DNA of 41,349 bases from a virus (taxonomy: Duplodnaviria > Caudoviricetes): IMG/VR virus record IMGVR_UViG_3300045831_000017, positions 1-41,349 of that record; one strand, given 5' to 3'. A model generated the notes under the pieces. The model saw nothing but the letters and a program-made list of their open reading frames with translations. It was not told where the DNA came from and did no database searches. Both the position numbers and the translations under genes were made by a program. This document shows positions 3,407-41,349 of the stretch, in pieces (position 1 is the stretch's first letter; every line of letters begins with the position of its first letter).

Positions 3407-4609
3407 ATGAGCGTCCAGCGCCGCCCGAAGCAGGGCAAGGACAGTGCAGGGGTCGTCCGGTGGGTCGTGCGGTACCGCGACCGGGCAGGCAAGGAGCACA
3501 GCAAGACGTTCTCGTCTGCCGACTACAAGAAGCCGGCAGAAGCCGCGAAATCCTTCGACGCGACGATGCGAGACCAACTGCGCCGCGGCACGTGGATCGA
3601 CCCCGACGACGGGAAGAAGACCGTCCGCGAGGTCACCGAAGTGTGGGTCGAGACCGCGGTGAAGGCAGGGACGAAGGACACCCGCAGGCATCTGCTCGCC
3701 AACCTCGGCGACCTGGCCGACATAACCCTAGGCGCACTGCGCCCCTCGCACGTGACCACGTGGGTCAGTGTGCTGCGCACCGGACGCCCGTGGGCGAAAG
3801 GCCGGCCACTGTCCGACGCGACCATCCGCGTCCGCCTCGGCCAGCTCCAGTCCGTAATGCAGATCGCCGTCGACGACGACATGCTCGCCAAGAACCCCGT
3901 CCGCGTCGCCCGGCGCGGCCTGGGCAGTCAGCTGCGTTCGGTGGATGAGCGTGAGGTGCCGTCGGTGGAGCAGATCAACCGGCTGATCGAGACGGCCAGG
4001 ACAGGTGGCAGGGTTCCCGGAGTTGAAGGGCACGGGTCGACGCTTGCGCCGGCGGAGTGGCTGGCCCAGGTCCTGATCATCTCCTCGGAGACCGGGCTGC
4101 GTATCGGCGAGGTTGCCGGGCTGATCGGTGATGACGTGGATCTGGATGCCGGACTGCTGCATGTGCAGCGGCAGTGCCCGTACCGGGTGGATGAGCTCAC
4201 GGGGTTGAAGTCCGAGGCGTCCGACCGGTTCGTGCCGATCTCGGCGGCGCTGGTCCGGGATCTTCGTCGGTGGATGCGCGGGCCGGAGGACCGGGTGGTC
4301 GCAGGGCCGAAGGGCCATGGGGTGTCGTCGCCTACCATCACGACGGCAGTGGCGAAGTGCCGGAAGATCGCCGGGGTGCCCGACACGATCAGTGCACACG
4401 GGACGCGGCACTTCTTCGCCACCTCCCTGCTGGCGGCCGGCGAGCCGCTGCAGACCGTCTCCTCGCTGCTCGGTCACGACTCGATCAGCACGACCGGAGC
4501 GGTCTACAGCCACTTCCTGCCGGACCATCTGGAGGCATCGCGGGCCGCGGTGAAATCTCTTGCGGGATCGTTGCGGGATGGACGGGGCGAGCTGAGGGTG
4601 GTGGGCTAG
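3407..4609 (+). CDS. int: Tyrosine integrase
   Basis: N-terminal arm-binding region (WVVRYRD..GKEHSKTF). Catalytic motifs TGLRIGE, HGTRH, LLGH and YSH. Confidence 0.95.
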   Translation: MSVQRRPKQGKDSAGVVRWVVRYRDRAGKEHSKTFSSADYKKPAEAAKSFDATMRDQLRRGTWIDPDDGKKTVREVTEVWVETAVKAGTKDTRRHLLANLGDLADITLGALRPSHVTTWVSVLRTGRPWAKGRPLSDATIRVRLGQLQSVMQIAVDDDMLAKNPVRVARRGLGSQLRSVDEREVPSVEQINRLIETARTGGRVPGVEGHGSTLAPAEWLAQVLIISSETGLRIGEVAGLIGDDVDLDAGLLHVQRQCPYRVDELTGLKSEASDRFVPISAALVRDLRRWMRGPEDRVVAGPKGHGVSSPTITTAVAKCRKIAGVPDTISAHGTRHFFATSLLAAGEPLQTVSSLLGHDSISTTGAVYSHFLPDHLEASRAAVKSLAGSLRDGRGELRVVG

Positions 4610-4906: not shown

Positions 4907-4917
4907 GGCGGGGCATG

Positions 4918-18400: not shown

Positions 18401-19095
18401 TTAGGCGGGGATGAGGCTGGCGTCCCATCCGAGCCAGTCGGCGATGTCGGCGATGGGGGCGGCTTCGCCTACGTAGCGGCCGGATTGTCCGATGTCGGGG
18501 TTGATGGTTTCCGGTTCGGCGTCGTGGGCCTTGGGGCGTGGGTAGGGTTCGGGTTTCTCTGCGGTTTTGTCCATGGCGCGCTGCCAGTTGGCTCCGGCGA
18601 GGACGTCGAAGATGTCGGCGAGGATGCCGGTGTTGCGGTTCCAGCCGGAGAAGTCCGGCTCGGTGGCGCGTATGAGTGCGGAGTCGATGTCGGACTCCGT
18701 GACGATGACGTAGAGGTCCCTCCAGTTGAGTCGGTCGGTGCCGTCGCACAGCCAGCGCAGGCGTAGGCCCTCACCGATCAGGTCTCGCTCGACGGCCCGG
18801 CAGGTGTCCGGGTCGTCGAGGAGGTCTAGGAGGCCGAGGATTCCCCCACGGAGGTGTCGCCCTCCGGGCCGGTCTGCCATGCGACCATGAAGTCCTGGAA
18901 CTCGCCCATGGGGAGGTTGTCGATCTGGTCGAGGGTGGCTTCGTCGGCGACCTTCTCGAGCATCTCCCAGCCGAGCTCCTCCTGGGACTTGGAGCGGTTA
19001 CGGCGGAGCCATCCGGCGGTGAGTGCGTCGCGGATCCAGGGGATGGTGATGTCGGCGCCGGTGGCCTCGGAGTGGTAGTGGAACTTCTCGAGCAT
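18401..19095 (-). CDS. Tail assembly chaperone, long (GT) form via -1 frameshift
   Basis: In-frame G GGG GAA at 18841-18847 links the G frame to the -1 ORF ending at 18401, the canonical arrangement before the tape measure. Confidence 0.85.
18826..19095 (-). CDS. Tail assembly chaperone, short (G) form
   Basis: MLEKFHYH start after AAAGGA SD, 89 aa ending ...SVGESSAS. Confidence 0.85.
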   Translation of the reverse strand: MLEKFHYHSEATGADITIPWIRDALTAGWLRRNRSKSQEELGWEMLEKVADEATLDQIDNLPMGEFQDFMVAWQTGPEGDTSVGESSAS

Positions 19096-19198: not shown

Positions 19199-19204
19199 GC
19201 GCTG

Positions 19205-19636
19205 TTACTCCCCGGAGGGCGCTTCGAGCGCGTCGATGCGGGCGAGGGCGGCGGCGAAGTCTTCGGTGGAGACCTTGCCGTTGAGTGCGTCCTGCAGGCC
19301 GGTGACGTTGGCCACAGTGTGGGTGTGGTTGCCGGCGGCTGCGGTGGTCCCGGTGGTGCCGAGTGCGAGATTGCTGGTGCCTGCGCCGATGGCGGAGCGT
19401 GCCGCGGTGGCGTCGGACGCCTTGAGCACGTTCTTGCCGACCGTGGTGGCACCGGAGAGGGTGTCCGCGGTCGGGGCGGCGGGGATGTCGTCGGGATCAG
19501 CCTTTCCGTCGGCAGTGGACTGCGCGGCGGCGGCGGCATCGTGAGCGGACTTGATGCCCTGCTCGATCTTGTTGAGGTTGTCGGCCTCCAGATCGGGGGC
19601 GGAGTCGTTTGCCCAGGCGGTGGGTTCGTATGCCAT
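19205..19636 (-). CDS. Small fibre or decoration protein between tail tube and chaperone genes
   Basis: MAYEPTAW...LEADNLNKIEQGI N-terminus, AARSAIGAGTSNLALG and HTHTVANVTGLQDALNGK fibre repeats, C-terminal coil. AGGAGG SD. Confidence 0.8.
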   Translation of the reverse strand: MAYEPTAWANDSAPDLEADNLNKIEQGIKSAHDAAAAAQSTADGKADPDDIPAAPTADTLSGATTVGKNVLKASDATAARSAIGAGTSNLALGTTGTTAAAGNHTHTVANVTGLQDALNGKVSTEDFAAALARIDALEAPSGE

Positions 19637-19689
19637 GTTGTGTCCTCCTCAGAGGCTCAGGGAGTGGTGGACGGGTGAAGCCCCGGAGA

Positions 19690-19742
19690 CGGGTGCAGCC
19701 CCTTGCGGGGCCGCAGGCCTACGGGGTCGGGGTTTCCCCCGA
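19690..19742 (-). repeat. 53-bp frameshift cassette, copy at the 3' end of the major tail gene
   Basis: Identical to 22103-22155. Contains GGGGGAA, the stop codon and a GCAA-tetraloop hairpin. Confidence 0.95.
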
Positions 19743-20363
19743 GTCATCACCGCCATCGCCGTCGGCGGGTGCTTCGGCGTCGGGGCGGTAGATGTACTGG
19801 TAGAGCTTGTTCGTGTCGTCGTCCGGGAAGCACTCGAAGGTGACCTCGTACTGGATAACGCCGGAGCGGACGAAGTTGACGTCGCCGACCTCGGTGGCCT
19901 GGGCGTCCGGGGCGAACAGGCGGATGCGGGACTCGGCCGCACCCTTGATCTCGGCGTCGAGAGCACGGTGCGGGAGCTCGTCGGCGTTGTCGACGACGGT
20001 GATGTTCTTCCCGTCGGCGGAGATGATGACGTTGTTGTCACCGGCGATGATCTTGAGGACCTCGGCGTTGGCCGACTCCATGAAGGTCAGCTTGAGGGTG
20101 ACGGAGTGGTCGGACTGCACGATGACGACGGTGTCGCCGTTCCAGTCCTTGATCTTCTCGGTGGAGCGGTCGACGGTCTTGGAGATGCCGTCCTCGGTGA
20201 TGTAGCCGCCGGGCTTGAGGTCCAGGCGGGTCTGGAGCTCGGAGATGGCCTCCTCGGCGTCCTTCGGGTAGTTGGCGATGGCCGGGGCGGCGGGGCCGAT
20301 CAGCATTCCGCCGGCGGCCTTAACGTCGGGTGCACCGACGAGAACATTGGCGCGGTTGCGCAT
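19719..20363 (-). CDS. Major tail (tube) protein, with predicted -1 extended form ending at 19657
   Basis: NVLVGAP, GYITEDG and KIKDWNGDTV motifs of actinophage tail tubes. Confidence 0.92.
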   Translation of the reverse strand: MRNRANVLVGAPDVKAAGGMLIGPAAPAIANYPKDAEEAISELQTRLDLKPGGYITEDGISKTVDRSTEKIKDWNGDTVVIVQSDHSVTLKLTFMESANAEVLKIIAGDNNVIISADGKNITVVDNADELPHRALDAEIKGAAESRIRLFAPDAQATEVGDVNFVRSGVIQYEVTFECFPDDDTNKLYQYIYRPDAEAPADGDGGDDSGETPTP

Positions 20364-20420
20364 TGGTTTCTCCCTTTCGTGGAGACGGGGTATGGGAAAG
20401 GCCCTGGCCTGACCGGAGGG

Positions 20421-20780
20421 TCAGAGCAGGGCCTGGGTGAGCGTCCCGATGAACTGCCATCGGGTCACGTCTGGGGTGTCAGGGTCGGGAAAGTCGACGG
20501 GGCCGGAGTCCTCAGACCAGCCGAGGACCCGGTCATCGATCACGTCGAGCTCAAAGCAGAGTTCGCGGATGACGTCGATGAGGTCGACGGTCTCGTCGAG
20601 AGTCTGCCCGTAGACCTGGATGAAGACGGTGGTCACGTCGGTGACCGGAGTGGTGCGCCGTGGCGCGGCCTGGTCCACGCGGACGAAGAGGTCCGGTCGT
20701 GGTCGGGGCACCTTGTGCACCACCTGGGCGGGCACGTTGTCCCGCAGGACGGCCATGACGATCTGCTGGGCTGTGGGCAC
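20421..20780 (-). CDS. Tail terminator protein
   Basis: GTG start (PTAQQIV) after a GGAGGG SD. VPRPRPDLFVRV and PDPDTPDVTRWQ motifs, directly upstream of the tail tube gene. Confidence 0.75.
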   Translation of the reverse strand: MPTAQQIVMAVLRDNVPAQVVHKVPRPRPDLFVRVDQAAPRRTTPVTDVTTVFIQVYGQTLDETVDLIDVIRELCFELDVIDDRVLGWSEDSGPVDFPDPDTPDVTRWQFIGTLTQALL

Positions 20781-20812
20781 AGTCCCTCCCCTCCCCCGGC
20801 GTGTAGACCTGC

Positions 20813-21061
20813 TCAGCCCAGCTTGCGAGCAGACAGGACCTTGACCAGGGTGTTGTTCTTCTGGTTGTCGCGGTACGCCTTGTACGTGTCTGGGATGACG
20901 ATCGTCCGGTACCGGGTCTTGCCCTGTACCGAGCTGATCGTGTACCCGGATCCGCACTCGACGGCGATGGAGTCGGCCTCGGCGTCGACGGCGGAAATGA
21001 CACCGGGTGACCGGCGGATCGCCTCGAACGCCTTGGGGTTCCACTGGAGTTTCGGGGCCAT
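20813..21061 (-). CDS. Tail-completion or neck protein (HK97 gp10-like position)
   Basis: MAPKLQWNPKAFEAIRRSP...NNTLVKVL, with typical size and synteny. Confidence 0.7.
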   Translation of the reverse strand: MAPKLQWNPKAFEAIRRSPGVISAVDAEADSIAVECGSGYTISSVQGKTRYRTIVIPDTYKAYRDNQKNNTLVKVLSARKLG

Positions 21062-21063
21062 GG

Positions 21064-21252
21064 TCAGCCCCGGTCCTTGACGATCTCGAACTCCGCCCAC
21101 GCCCCCGGCGCGTAGCCGGCGAGCGTGCTGGTGCCCTGAGCGTCGGCGAAGATGACGAGGCATCCGTCGACGATCTCGCAGGCGTTGGTGGGGTGTTCGG
21201 TGATGACGGCCTCGCCAGTGTCGTCGAGGACGCCGTGGGTGATGCGGATCAT
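21064..21252 (-). CDS. Small hypothetical protein in the head-tail module
   Basis: 62 aa (MIRITHG...AGYAPGAWAEFE), start overlapping the upstream stop with a GGAGG SD. Confidence 0.65.
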   Translation of the reverse strand: MIRITHGVLDDTGEAVITEHPTNACEIVDGCLVIFADAQGTSTLAGYAPGAWAEFEIVKDRG

Positions 21253-21596
21253 CAGCCCTCCGTTCTGGTTGCGATGACGACGACGAGACCCGGATCGAAG
21301 AACGGGTTGTTGGCGAAGTCCTGGTCGTTGCCCTTCACCTTCCACGGTGTCGGGTCCCCCGGTGTCCTGATCTCGCCGCCCGGGCCGGGGTCGTCGTCGG
21401 GGGCGCAGTAGACAGTGAGCGTGTCGATCGTCCGCAGGAGGGAGTCGCCCACGACTTCCTGGGTCGGGGAGACTGCCCACCCGAACACGAGGACTTCCTG
21501 CCACGGGCCGAAGCCCATGACGGGGTCACCGTTTCGGTCGGTGCCGGTGCGGGTCCAGGAGCGGACCTCGACCGGGCGGGTCAGCGGGTAGGCCAT
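21252..21596 (-). CDS. Head-to-tail stopper
   Basis: DRNGDP, WKVKG and NPFF.PG motifs plus synteny. Confidence 0.75.
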   Translation of the reverse strand: MAYPLTRPVEVRSWTRTGTDRNGDPVMGFGPWQEVLVFGWAVSPTQEVVGDSLLRTIDTLTVYCAPDDDPGPGGEIRTPGDPTPWKVKGNDQDFANNPFFDPGLVVVIATRTEG

Positions 21597-22057
21597 CAGA
21601 CCCCCTCTCCCGGCGCGGTGCCGGGCGGTCCGTTGACCCAGGCGTGGTCCAGCGGGTGCCCGGTGCGGTTGGGCTTTGCGGTCATGTCGAAGCCGGTGTG
21701 CTTCTTCGCGCCGCCGGAGAGCATCGCCCGGTGAGCCGGGGTCAGTTCCATGGACTGCGCGAGAGTCTCGGTGCCGTAGGTCGTGGACTCGGTGAAGACG
21801 CCGGCGGTGCGACTGGCCTGCCGGACTGCTTCCGGGTTCCGCAGGGCCGTGCTGACGAGCTGCACTTCGACGTAGACGACCCTGGTGTGCCAGGTGCCGT
21901 CCGTGTCGTCGGTGAGCTGATCAGTGAGCTTCGGATACTCAGAGAGGATCAGTGTCTCCGCATCGTCCAGCCAGAGCTGGATGACGTCGTCTGCGGGCAG
22001 GGCGGAGGTGGACAGCCAGCGGTCGCGGACGTCCGCTGGTGTCGCGTAGGTGGTCAC
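21596..22057 (-). CDS. Head-to-tail adaptor (Gp19/Gp15/Gp42-like)
   Basis: YATPADV..RW, LDDAE and LRNPE motifs, directly after the capsid gene. Confidence 0.85.
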   Translation of the reverse strand: MTTYATPADVRDRWLSTSALPADDVIQLWLDDAETLILSEYPKLTDQLTDDTDGTWHTRVVYVEVQLVSTALRNPEAVRQASRTAGVFTESTTYGTETLAQSMELTPAHRAMLSGGAKKHTGFDMTAKPNRTGHPLDHAWVNGPPGTAPGEGV

Positions 22058-22102
22058 AGAGTCACCTCCCTACGTGGTTGTGCGCGGATGCAGCCCCGTA
22101 GC

Positions 22103-22155
22103 CGGGTGCAGCCCCTTGCGGGGCCGCAGGCCTACGGGGTCGGGGTTTCCCCCGA
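22103..22155 (-). repeat. 53-bp frameshift cassette, copy at the 3' end of the major capsid gene
   Basis: Identical to 19690-19742. Confidence 0.95.
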
Positions 22156-23094
22156 ACCACCAGCCGGGAGAAGGAGTCCGGCCGGGTAGACGCGGTCCTT
22201 CTTCCGGCCGACGCGGGTGACCGGCGCGGCGCACTGCCAGCCGACCCGCATGACCACGCGCAACGCCTTCGAATCCTGCTGCATCAGGTTCAGGACGACC
22301 TTGCCCTCGGCGTCGGAGATGACGCCCTCGGAGAAGAGGTCGTAGGTGATGTCCTGGCGGACGCCGACGACGAACTTGGACCAGTCGAGGGCCATGAGCT
22401 TCGCCTTTTCGCCGTCGAAGCCGCCGGTGGCGTCCTCGTTGATCGGCTTGCCGTACAGGGTGTCCGGCTGGCCGAGGGCGTGGGACGGGCCGTAGATCGC
22501 GTCGCCGTTGGCGGAGCGCTGTCCGATCAGTTCCCAGCCGAGGCCCGGCTCGGAGACGAAGCCGTTGATGTTGTAGCCCTGCTTGGAGACCAGGCCCGCG
22601 AGGTTGGCGACGTCGACGCCGAGGTCTGCGCCGGTACCGGCAGTGACGGTGTTGCCAGCGGCGGTGGCTGCGGTGAAGACGTCGTCGGGCCAGGAGTCCG
22701 GCTTGTCGACGCCGAAGAGGGTGGCCTCGTCGATCTTCTGGCCGAAGGCCTCGGCGACGAGCGGCTTGATCTCGTCCCAGAGGGGCACCTGGGCGTCGGC
22801 GATGAGAGCGTCCGGGATCGGGACGATGACCGCGAGCTCCTCGGCGGTCATGGTGATCCCGTTCCAGGTTGCACCGGAGGTCTGCTTGAGACCGGTGTCG
22901 CCGTTGACCCAGTAGGCGTCCGGGAGGGAGGCGAGGACGGGCTGCTTGGACTTGGCGGAGCTCATCGGCACCCGGCGGGCGTTGGTGAGCATGATGGAGT
23001 CCTTCGGAGCCTCGGCGAGGATCTCCTTGGACACCTGGTCGGGAAGGTGGGCGTCGGAGACGTCCGCCCGTCCGAGGATGTTGTTGAACGGCAT
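22132..23094 (-). CDS. Major capsid protein (HK97 fold), with predicted -1 extended form ending at 22070
   Basis: AYWV, EELAVIVP and NLMQQD..ALRV.MRVGW motifs, following the scaffold gene. Confidence 0.95.
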   Translation of the reverse strand: MPFNNILGRADVSDAHLPDQVSKEILAEAPKDSIMLTNARRVPMSSAKSKQPVLASLPDAYWVNGDTGLKQTSGATWNGITMTAEELAVIVPIPDALIADAQVPLWDEIKPLVAEAFGQKIDEATLFGVDKPDSWPDDVFTAATAAGNTVTAGTGADLGVDVANLAGLVSKQGYNINGFVSEPGLGWELIGQRSANGDAIYGPSHALGQPDTLYGKPINEDATGGFDGEKAKLMALDWSKFVVGVRQDITYDLFSEGVISDAEGKVVLNLMQQDSKALRVVMRVGWQCAAPVTRVGRKKDRVYPAGLLLPAGGSGETPTP

Positions 23095-23151
23095 GGTCGG
23101 TTCCTTTCAGTTGCCGTGAACGGTTGTGGTCGGCTGTGTGGTCCGGTCGGC

Positions 23152-24054: not shown

Positions 24055-24372
24055 TCATGCTGTTGCCTGGCGTGCTTCGAGAAGAGCTTCGAGGTCGATC
24101 TTCGGTTCCATGGCTGCGAAGGCCCGGAGGTTGTCCTGCGTTAACTCGTCTTCGGGGTACTCGGGGTCCGGATCGTCAAGGTCCCCGTCGTCTACGAAGA
24201 CTCGGATGAACTGTTCCTTCATCGCCGAGTCGACTACTGCGCGGGTCTCGACCAGATCGTCAAGGAGGATGTCGAAGACTCTCTCCTCGATGGGGATACG
24301 CCCGAAGATGGCCGGTGGTACGGCGGTCGCGGCAATCTGCTCCGCAAGTGCTAGGGGGTCAGTCTCCGTCAT
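24055..24372 (-). CDS. Putative immunity protein for the MuF-EndoU toxin
   Basis: 105-aa acidic protein whose ATG overlaps the toxin stop (ATGA), with a GGAGG SD. Confidence 0.6.
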   Translation of the reverse strand: MTETDPLALAEQIAATAVPPAIFGRIPIEERVFDILLDDLVETRAVVDSAMKEQFIRVFVDDGDLDDPDPEYPEDELTQDNLRAFAAMEPKIDLEALLEARQATA

Positions 24373-25649
24373 GTCGCCTCCTCGGGCCATCCTCGTTCTT
24401 CTACGTCGCCATTCGGCAGTACCACCTTAACTCCATCACCTCGTCGGGGGAAGGCGCTTGTTACGCGATAGTCGTTGCCACTGTTCTTCTTGGCGCCACC
24501 GCACTGCACGACGAGTTCGATTGTTCCTCCAGCAGGTGATGGAACGGTCGCGAACACCCAGTATCCCCACTTCCCGTTCTTCTGGATGACTTCAGGGTCA
24601 GCGAGGACTCGGGCGATTCCGTCTTCTCCATTGAGCCATTCCGCAAGCTCCTGGTCGGTCATATCGGGGAAGAACGTCTTTCCGTCCGGCAGTAGTTTCC
24701 CCGTGCCGTTTCGGACCTCTGTGGCGATAGGCGGAATCTGTTGTGCAATATGGCCGCCGGTGATCAGTTTTGTCTTCTTGGCTACCTTGTACGAGGTCAG
24801 GTGCCTCATGTCCAGGGCGGTGTCTATCTTCCCTGCATCCCGAGAGGCAAGGAACATGTCACGGTCGCGCACCTTCTTCCGTTTGCCGGCGATGTGGGCC
24901 TCCCAGACCTTCGCCTGGCCGGGAAGCGGTCCGTTGTCATCCCAGGTGACGTCATACCACTCGTCTTGGAGGTCCTTGACGATCTGCGGAAGGTCCGCGT
25001 CCGAGAAGCTCTCCCGCGCGGTGCAGGAGCAGTGATCGTGGTACTTCTGGCCCTCCGCCCGCTGCCCGGTGGTGAACCGATGCCCGCCGGATGCTGCCGG
25101 ATTTCGGGTGTGCGAGACCCTCGCATCACCCTTTCTCGTGTACCCGCCACCGGTGGTCAGCACCGACGACTTCGTGTACACCGCTCCCCTGCTGGCGAGC
25201 ATGAGGCAGAACGCGCACGCGTTCGCCCCCGGCACGCGCACATACCGACTGCCGGCGGCGGCGGTGGACTCCCACACGGTCTCCCTCGCGGGCTGACGCA
25301 CCAGACGACCCAGCGGCCCGGCCATCACCCGCGCAGCGGCGGGGATGTTGCCCTCGGCCTTGTTCACCGCCCAGGACGCCGAGGAGGAGACCTGAGCGAC
25401 GTTGACCGGATCCGCGGGCACCGGGGCAGGCAGCTGGTCCTGCCCGGCGTCCATCCGCCCGGTGTCCAACGCCCACAGAGCCGAGGACACTGCCACGGTG
25501 CCGTAACGGCGGGTGATCTCCGCGCAGACAGCCTGGAACGCCTCCGGGGACATGTCCGGGTTGGCGTCCACCGCCTTAAACAGAGTGTCGGTGGCCAGCA
25601 CCACTGTCTTGTCGAGGTGCTGGGCATGCGTGTTCCAGGGGTCGGCCAC
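24369..25649 (-). CDS. MuF-like minor head (capsid maturation) protein with C-terminal EndoU-like nuclease domain
   Basis: N-terminal YVRVP...ACAFCLMLASRG.VY and YHDHCSC. C-terminal RHL...GGH...GKTFFP...SAFP pattern of bacterial EndoU. Confidence 0.8.
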   Translation of the reverse strand: MADPWNTHAQHLDKTVVLATDTLFKAVDANPDMSPEAFQAVCAEITRRYGTVAVSSALWALDTGRMDAGQDQLPAPVPADPVNVAQVSSSASWAVNKAEGNIPAAARVMAGPLGRLVRQPARETVWESTAAAGSRYVRVPGANACAFCLMLASRGAVYTKSSVLTTGGGYTRKGDARVSHTRNPAASGGHRFTTGQRAEGQKYHDHCSCTARESFSDADLPQIVKDLQDEWYDVTWDDNGPLPGQAKVWEAHIAGKRKKVRDRDMFLASRDAGKIDTALDMRHLTSYKVAKKTKLITGGHIAQQIPPIATEVRNGTGKLLPDGKTFFPDMTDQELAEWLNGEDGIARVLADPEVIQKNGKWGYWVFATVPSPAGGTIELVVQCGGAKKNSGNDYRVTSAFPRRGDGVKVVLPNGDVEERGWPEEAT

Positions 25650-41222: not shown

Positions 41223-41349
41223 CGTGAAACTGCCATGCGCGTAGTTACACGCCTGGGTTTCAGCGGAACAGGCGGTTCTTGCGTCCGTGTCCACGTTGAT
41301 GTTTCACATGGTTTCCGACACACTTACCGGTATGACTAGTGACGGACAG
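41223..41349. repeat. Terminal direct repeat, copy 2
   Basis: Identical to 1-127. Confidence 0.95.

Follow-up and report, generated by a model that had tools for sequence, protein, structure and literature searches.

A frameshift-added three-repeat peptide as a probable docking tag for a phage fibre

We analyzed a stretch of viral DNA of 41,349 nucleotides (nt) (IMG/VR record IMGVR_UViG_3300045831_000017, positions 1 to 41,349; this whole stretch is called the window), in which the major capsid gene and the tail-tube gene end in the same frameshift cassette. Based on comparison with other phages, the short peptide tag that a -1 frameshift would add to a minority of capsid and tail-tube subunits is likely to be a docking site for the N-terminal domain of a fibre protein, encoded by the gene after the tail tube. 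The initial annotation had guessed at a docking tag, and this guess now gains a candidate partner that it did not name, the fibre gene at 19205-19636. The window appears to be the whole record of a temperate siphophage with direct terminal repeats and 66% GC. Its structural operon, on the minus strand, comprises terminase, portal, protease, scaffold, capsid, head-tail connectors, tail tube, 'head fiber protein', tail chaperones and tape measure. The features concerned are as follows (bp, base pairs; aa, amino acids).

22132..23094, minus strand: major capsid protein gene, 320 aa, C-terminus SGETPTP-TAG; phrog_10, E 2.3e-45; Pfam Phage_capsid
19719..20363, minus strand: tail tube (major tail) gene, 214 aa, C-terminus SGETPTP-TAG; phrog_117, E 8.1e-39; Pfam Phage_TTP_17
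22103..22155, minus strand: 53-bp block (slip site, 0-frame stop and hairpin), capsid copy, identical to the tail copy
19690..19742, minus strand: 53-bp block, tail copy, identical to the capsid copy
22147..22153, minus strand: slippery heptamer G GGG GAA, capsid copy, same as the heptamer of the chaperone site
19734..19740, minus strand: slippery heptamer G GGG GAA, tail copy, seen in the sequence
22070..22153, minus strand: -1 frame, capsid copy, GGNPDPVGLRPRKGLHPATGLHPRTTT*; predicted long form 341 aa (+21 aa, about +2.2 kDa)
19657..19740, minus strand: -1 frame, tail copy, GGNPDPVGLRPRKGLHPSPGLHPSTTP*; predicted long form 235 aa (+21 aa, about +2.1 kDa)
22091..22139, minus strand: stem-loop, capsid copy, predicted stimulator, starting 7 nt past the heptamer
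19205..19636, minus strand: fibre gene ('head fiber protein'), 143 aa; phrog_5711, E 1.4e-21; likely partner of the tag by co-occurrence
19517..19636, minus strand: N-terminal 'anchor' domain of the fibre, consensus MAYxPTxWxN...PxIxAxxLNxIExGI; sole copy in the window
18841..18847, minus strand: slip site G GGG GAA of the tail assembly chaperone, in frame; internal reference for the same heptamer

The cassette on the capsid and tail-tube genes

The description of the cassette in the initial annotation was accurate throughout. The block shared by the two genes is identical over exactly 53 bp, both genes end SGETPTP-TAG, the in-frame G GGG GAA is also present in the tail chaperone gene (18847-18841), and the -1 frames read GGNPDPVGLRPRKGLHPSPGLHPSTTP in the tail copy, with the stop at 19657, and GGNPDPVGLRPRKGLHPATGLHPRTTT in the capsid copy, with the stop at 22070. 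Both heptamers sit five codons ahead of the TAG stops, and the extension by the -1 frame is 26 residues, a net gain of 21 over the short form. The -1 frames close 20 nt (tail) and 12 nt (capsid) ahead of the next start codons, and their predicted products include the peptides GLHPATGLHPR and GLHPSPGLHPSTTP. In contigs of four public runs, no letter differed from the window sequence; the 53-mer formed a separate contig at more than twice the flanking depth in two runs, and one contig spanned the tail copy. The duplicated cassette is not an assembly artefact.

Differences between the two copies had been taken as a sign of selection on the -1 frame. The four synonymous codons and the stop swap on which this argument was built are present, but the argument is weak when drawn from the two window copies alone. 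Nine codons differ in the -1 frame (four synonymous, one stop swap and four replacements). The comparable share of synonymous codons is 3 of 9 for the 0 frame and 0 of 8 for the third one, and across seven close cassette copies third positions account for only 9 of 20 variable columns. The strong sequence evidence for the -1 frame comes from distant phages, not from the two window copies.

Stimulators of -1 frameshifting are typically 3' RNA structures located 5-9 nt past the slip site. In the window, a stem enclosing a 9-bp GCAA hairpin begins 7 nt after the heptamer, as the initial annotation had noted, and this spacing agrees with the 3' structure of a programmed -1 frameshift signal. The hairpins of the two window copies folded more stably than dinucleotide shuffles (z -2.75 and -2.68) and than synonymous shuffles of the -1 peptide (z -3.9 and -4.4), and eight of nine cassettes fell below z -2.6 against the latter, the exception being the family L107.

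A stable GNRA-type hairpin after both stops would also be expected if the block were only an RNA or DNA element, such as a terminator, a processing site or a recombination scar, with the -1 peptide as a by-product, and the weak synonymy between the two copies is compatible with this. Against it, no U-tract or other terminator-like site was detected on the coding strand between 18700 and 23300, including both cassette sites, and no known RNA family matched at the Rfam gathering level. Furthermore, the peptide survives rewriting of the underlying DNA, occurs without the hairpin (L107), and is found in frame in other proteins (LRPRKGLFPRKGLYP in low-GC phages). We regard a purely nucleic-acid role as very improbable.

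The -1 frame and the tag in other phages

To survey IMG/VR, we used a frame-blind pattern consisting of GGGGGAA followed by three LxP at period 6. It returned 70 loci with 29 distinct matches, 11 of which end a gene of more than 200 codons, and in all 11 the repeat lies in the -1 frame. These gene-end matches belong to three families, namely that of the window, L105 and L107. In the L105 family, both the capsid and the tail tube are tagged, and its capsid gave no tblastn alignment to the window capsid; in the L107 family, only the tail tube is tagged, and this tail tube gave no tblastn alignment to that of the window. Close relatives of the window phage retain both cassettes, and in L002 and L143 the tail copy has been rewritten at the DNA level and is one codon longer, yet it still encodes GLRPRAGLHPTVGLHP. 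The same GGGGGAA pattern matched 121 loci in 21 of the 64 parts of genome_contigs, none with a -1 motif at a gene end. Matches of the motif in the +1 frame were set aside, as inspection of overlaps placed them either on spurious frames that overlap others or on genes coding for something other than capsid or tail tube.

We then compared the slip sites of 38 capsid and tail ends with a -1 tag, listed by hand with near-duplicates left out. They comprised 13 C CCT-stop, 12 G GGG GAA, 6 G GGA AAM, 3 C CCG GAA and 4 other sites, so that one of the four slip sites was present at 34 of 38 tagged ends, compared with 2 of 91 control capsid and tail ends. L403 shows A AAA GAA at the position of G GGG GAA in its relative L390, which fits a homopolymer slip in the P site. 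The initial proposal of a -1 shift adding a short period-6 peptide to both subunits is thus supported at the sequence level by frame conservation in three families, by the slip sites and by in-frame versions of the motif. With the -1 reading well supported by these other phages, we have little doubt that the tag peptide is made in the window phage. As a separate observation, the capsid end of L058 shows G GGG GAA TAA, after which the -1 frame stays open for 67 codons or more, probably a classic domain-adding frameshift.

The repeat has a broader form, (xx[YFH]Pxx)3, which recurs at gene ends near loci of the anchor domain, on genes assigned by PHROGs to capsid or major tail (54 proteins scanned). 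At two ends, the tail tube of L343 and the capsid of L402, it is reached directly past a TGA, seemingly by readthrough. In L347, L355, L357 and L373, phrog_779 proteins carry it in frame at their C-terminus; these proteins correspond to Mask gp11, whose deposited name is 'major capsid pentamer protein'. The motif is also found in frame in minor tail or baseplate proteins. Low-GC phages carry LRPRKGLFPRKGLYP in frame about 4 kilobases (kb) from the domain gene; in L308, L314, L316, L318 and L337, a minor tail protein of 600 aa has one or two window-like GL(R/H/Y)P triplets in frame close to its N-terminus. Cultured phages show several arrangements. Pumpkin has a -1 tag on both genes, with the predicted peptides VPGSTTYPGENTFP (capsid) and VPGSNTFPGTALFP (tail); Mask has its pentamer protein tagged in frame, its tail tagged by -1 and its hexamer untagged; Kita has a -1 tag on the tail and none on the capsid; Proteus phage RS51pmB has a -1 tag on the capsid; and Wee has a tag in frame 1.5 kb upstream of gp24. 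A search of GenBank phages with the tag peptide gave five weak matches, of which only Dulem virus 35 was relevant.

The long form might instead be produced differently, for example by slippage during transcription of the G run, or the tag might be used only in part; either way, its docking role would stay the same. The site does contain a run of five G, and the apparent readthrough in L343 and L402 points to more than one way of reaching the tag. However, the slip classes are codon-phased (C CCT-stop, G GGA AAM, C CCG GAA) and most lack a long homopolymer, the chaperone shift uses the same heptamer, and no inserted letter was present in contigs of three RNA-labelled runs, a weak point given that contigs drop rare variants. 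We consider such a route improbable, and ribosomal -1 frameshifting remains the preferred explanation.

The fibre anchor domain and its link to the tag

The phrog_5711 profile covers residues 1-126 of the 143-aa fibre, that is, most of the protein (E 1.4e-21). Its anchor domain is 40 residues long, and a monomer model (predicted local distance difference test score, 87) shows an extended arm (residues 1-17) followed by one helix (18-45). In all three tagged families, each found by the DNA pattern alone, the gene after the tail tube carries this domain; it lies N-terminally except in L082 and L105, where an SGNH-like part precedes it. Searches with the domain recovered 503 GenBank phage records and 5258 representative proteins. 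Many of these proteins run on into collagen repeats (PF01391), and collagen repeats form trimers. The fibre also has a weak match to the Bxb1-type 'tail collar fibers gp4' (9d93, E 0.005). From the collagen-bearing homologues and this weak match, we infer that the fibre is a trimer. The whole fibre found no match among GenBank phages by tblastn, neither the anchor domain nor the tag nor the pentamer protein gave a significant match in the PDB, and fold searches with the anchor domain (Foldseek, VIA-align) gave a best Z of 4.5, within background.

Several variants of the anchor protein were seen. In L082 (6719-8167) and L105 (6323-7828), a protein of 480-500 aa with an SGNH/GDSL-like part before the anchor domain replaces the fibre gene, and a GTG directly ahead of the domain in this type might give a second, short product. 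Gp24 of Gordonia phage Rabbitrun, a 'lysophospholipase L1-like esterase' (H148), also matches the domain. The gene of the anchor-domain protein at L372 (2345-2989) ends with a tag in its own -1 frame, an arrangement that might permit branched fibres. Among 142 further domain proteins, the motif was present in the same chain in one, weakly.

To examine how the tag and the domain are distributed, we reduced 106 domain loci to 52 that are distinct by domain sequence. The motif occurs at most 300 nt upstream in 29 of the 52, compared with 7 of 3000 background windows, and anywhere on the same strand in 44, compared with 10 on the other strand. Conversely, in loci collected by capsid or tail-tube homology that lack the domain, the motif was absent in any frame from all 66 capsid ends and all 25 tail ends, after 26 duplicates and 1 truncated end had been dropped, whereas those with the domain showed it at 4 of 4 capsid ends and 4 of 4 tail ends. 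The closest cassette-free relative (capsid 92%, tail tube 82%) is also without the fibre gene. In addition, the subtypes of the two elements match. Among 47 distinct loci with both, the acidic PD[LI][DE]A domain was accompanied by the basic GL(R/H/Y)P tag in 10 of 10 and other domains in 0 of 37, and this pairing spans phages of 38-69% GC. The subtype data show that the pair travels together in these sequences, with no number of origins implied.

Based on these data, the tag probably docks the fibre of this phage, though the tag might have another job. It could bind cell surfaces, serve as a modification site or contact another virion or assembly protein, with the fibre gene merely co-travelling in a mobile module. 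The tag and the fibre gene are usually adjacent (at most 300 nt apart in 29 of 52), and co-transfer could explain part of the link; moreover, known extensions such as the FN3 domain of SPP1 are thought to act alone, according to the available portion of PMC8718954. However, the link, with matched subtypes, persists over distances of at least 2.4 kb where the capsid gene bears the tag and of about 4 kb where a minor tail gene has it in frame, and the window holds no second copy of the domain. We judge another job for the tag unlikely, and docking of the fibre is the reading followed below.

A number of observations weigh against docking or against parts of the evidence for it. The hairpin is absent in the family L107 (z -0.3), its register is shifted in the L105 type, and covariation is thin, with only two pairs changed on both sides. 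The motif was not found in 8 of the 52 domain loci within the stretch fetched. In 29 of the 91 control loci, the sequence is not long enough for a fibre gene to be seen, and near-identical phages account for all four positive homology loci. The subtype classes were set after the data had been seen, two subfamily alignments served as seeds for the searches, and the lineages are related to one another. Finally, Ruminococcus phage phiRg507T2_2 (L336) has the domain together with -1 tails on both genes, following G GGG GAA, but with a VGxGK/VGxAK repeat. Because this repeat differs, the domain is not tied to one motif, and by sequence the anchor domain family spans more than one tag type. In L336, the capsid and major tail genes (positions 4910 and 7247) end GGG GAA TAG with the -1 tails LVGRGKVGKAKAGKAK, beside an anchor-domain collagen fibre. 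A complex prediction of three copies of fibre residues 1-50 with the 31-residue -1 peptide of L143 gave scores of 0.07 and 0.05, where the mark is 0.32, and, being without controls, counts neither way.

In the mechanism that we propose, ribosomes that hold the Gly codon in their P site would slip back one base on GGGG, slowed by GAA in the A site and by the hairpin. A minority of capsid and tail-tube subunits would then end in a 26-residue tail, consisting of a flexible acidic linker and three GL(R/H)P repeats, and each tagged tail would capture one fibre trimer by its N-terminal domains, one repeat per subunit. This geometry is suggested by the collagen-bearing homologues and the repeat count of three. 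The frameshift rate would set the number of fibres per virion, and a single fibre gene could serve head and tail alike while the lattice stays uncrowded. A low copy number of the tag would be reached in other phages by stop readthrough or by in-frame fusion to a vertex-only pentamer or minor tail protein.

Taken across phages, a widespread and so far undescribed tag-and-anchor system, with matched pairs of tag and anchor subtypes, is favoured somewhat less firmly. In such a system, (xx[YFH]Pxx)3 on a capsid, tail-tube, pentamer or minor tail protein would grip a trimeric fibre base through the 40-residue N-terminal domain; fibre number would be set by a -1 shift, readthrough or a low-copy subunit; and exchange of the part after the anchor (collagen, fibre repeats or an SGNH-like enzyme) would swap what is displayed.

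Known frameshift-extended proteins and the genome setting

Capsid or tail proteins extended by frameshifting are known from phages A2, A118, A500, PSA, T3 and T7, and the extensions are described as immunoglobulin-like (Ig-like) domains, with that of T7 noted as not Ig-like (PMC5009743). According to the same text, Lactobacillus phage A2 and the Listeria phages A118, A500 and PSA resemble the window phage in that a shift at the 3' end gives a longer second product of both the capsid and the tail-shaft genes, and they resemble the tagged phages in having sites with a Pro codon before the stop, CCC_UGA, where the shift is +1. In contrast to these phages, the extension found here is a 26-residue linear three-repeat motif, with one cassette on both genes and a dedicated partner gene. 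SPP1 is similar in that a frameshift sets the ratio of short to long tail-tube protein (gp17.1 to gp17.1*, 3:1 in SPP1), but it adds an FN3 domain proposed to contact the cell wall itself, with no docked fibre, as far as the accessible part of PMC8718954 describes. As in the known class, the alternative frame here is open past the normal stop and conserved, whereas a folded Ig-like or FN3 extension is absent. Judged by sequence, the long form appears to be made as in known frameshift-extended proteins, and what is new is the linear repeat tag and its dedicated partner.

GGGGGAA is the common tail-chaperone motif of SEA-PHAGES phages, as stated in the available text of PMC10885494. The lambda-type G/GT chaperone -1 frameshift uses the same heptamer (excerpts of PMC5009743 and PMC10885494) but joins two chaperone frames that are not part of the virion, whereas the window phage also places the heptamer on structural genes. 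On the fibre side, the profiles of phrog_5711 'head fiber protein' and of the N-terminus of phrog_2012 'minor tail protein' match the window fibre and its N-terminal domain, as do the deposited proteins Kita gp13, Pumpkin gp20, Mask gp18 ('capsid decoration protein') and Wee gp24. The deposited records examined annotate neither a frameshift on a capsid or tail gene nor an attachment site. No paper on the short repeat tag or its docking was found in a search outside which most subscription papers and all supplements fell, and the accessible portions of PMC13252515, the preprint 10.64898/2026.07.24.740622 (Jabs), PMC12796354, PMC13033339 and PMC4351075 do not describe the tag system.

If correct, docking by a frameshifted tag would explain how 'head fibre' and side-fibre proteins are attached in the many phages in which no anchor is visible on the solved or annotated capsid and tail proteins. 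It would also imply unannotated recoding in cultured phages, including the cluster E mycobacteriophage Pumpkin, Mask, Gordonia phage Kita and Proteus phage RS51pmB, and recoding would gain a clear structural job, namely setting the number of attachment sites on a lattice. Such docking may have been overlooked because sparse, unsymmetrical fibres would average out in cryo-electron microscopy.

The host is likely a corynebacterium, because among named homologues of the fibre the closest (83%) belongs to Corynebacterium variabile. The window begins and ends with an exact direct terminal repeat of 127 nt (1-127 and 41223-41349), and encodes an integrase (3407-4609) and a repressor (65-886), which together point to the circular genome of a temperate phage. 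The region 19200-23100 was found in 24 listed runs with the label 'ant metagenome' (2025; they may stem from a single campaign), and in three of the four runs compared a second, related phage shares short pieces of the cassette and of the fibre start. In the head maturation protein (24369-25649), protease profiles match only about residues 17-286, and the last 140 or so residues form an extra domain.

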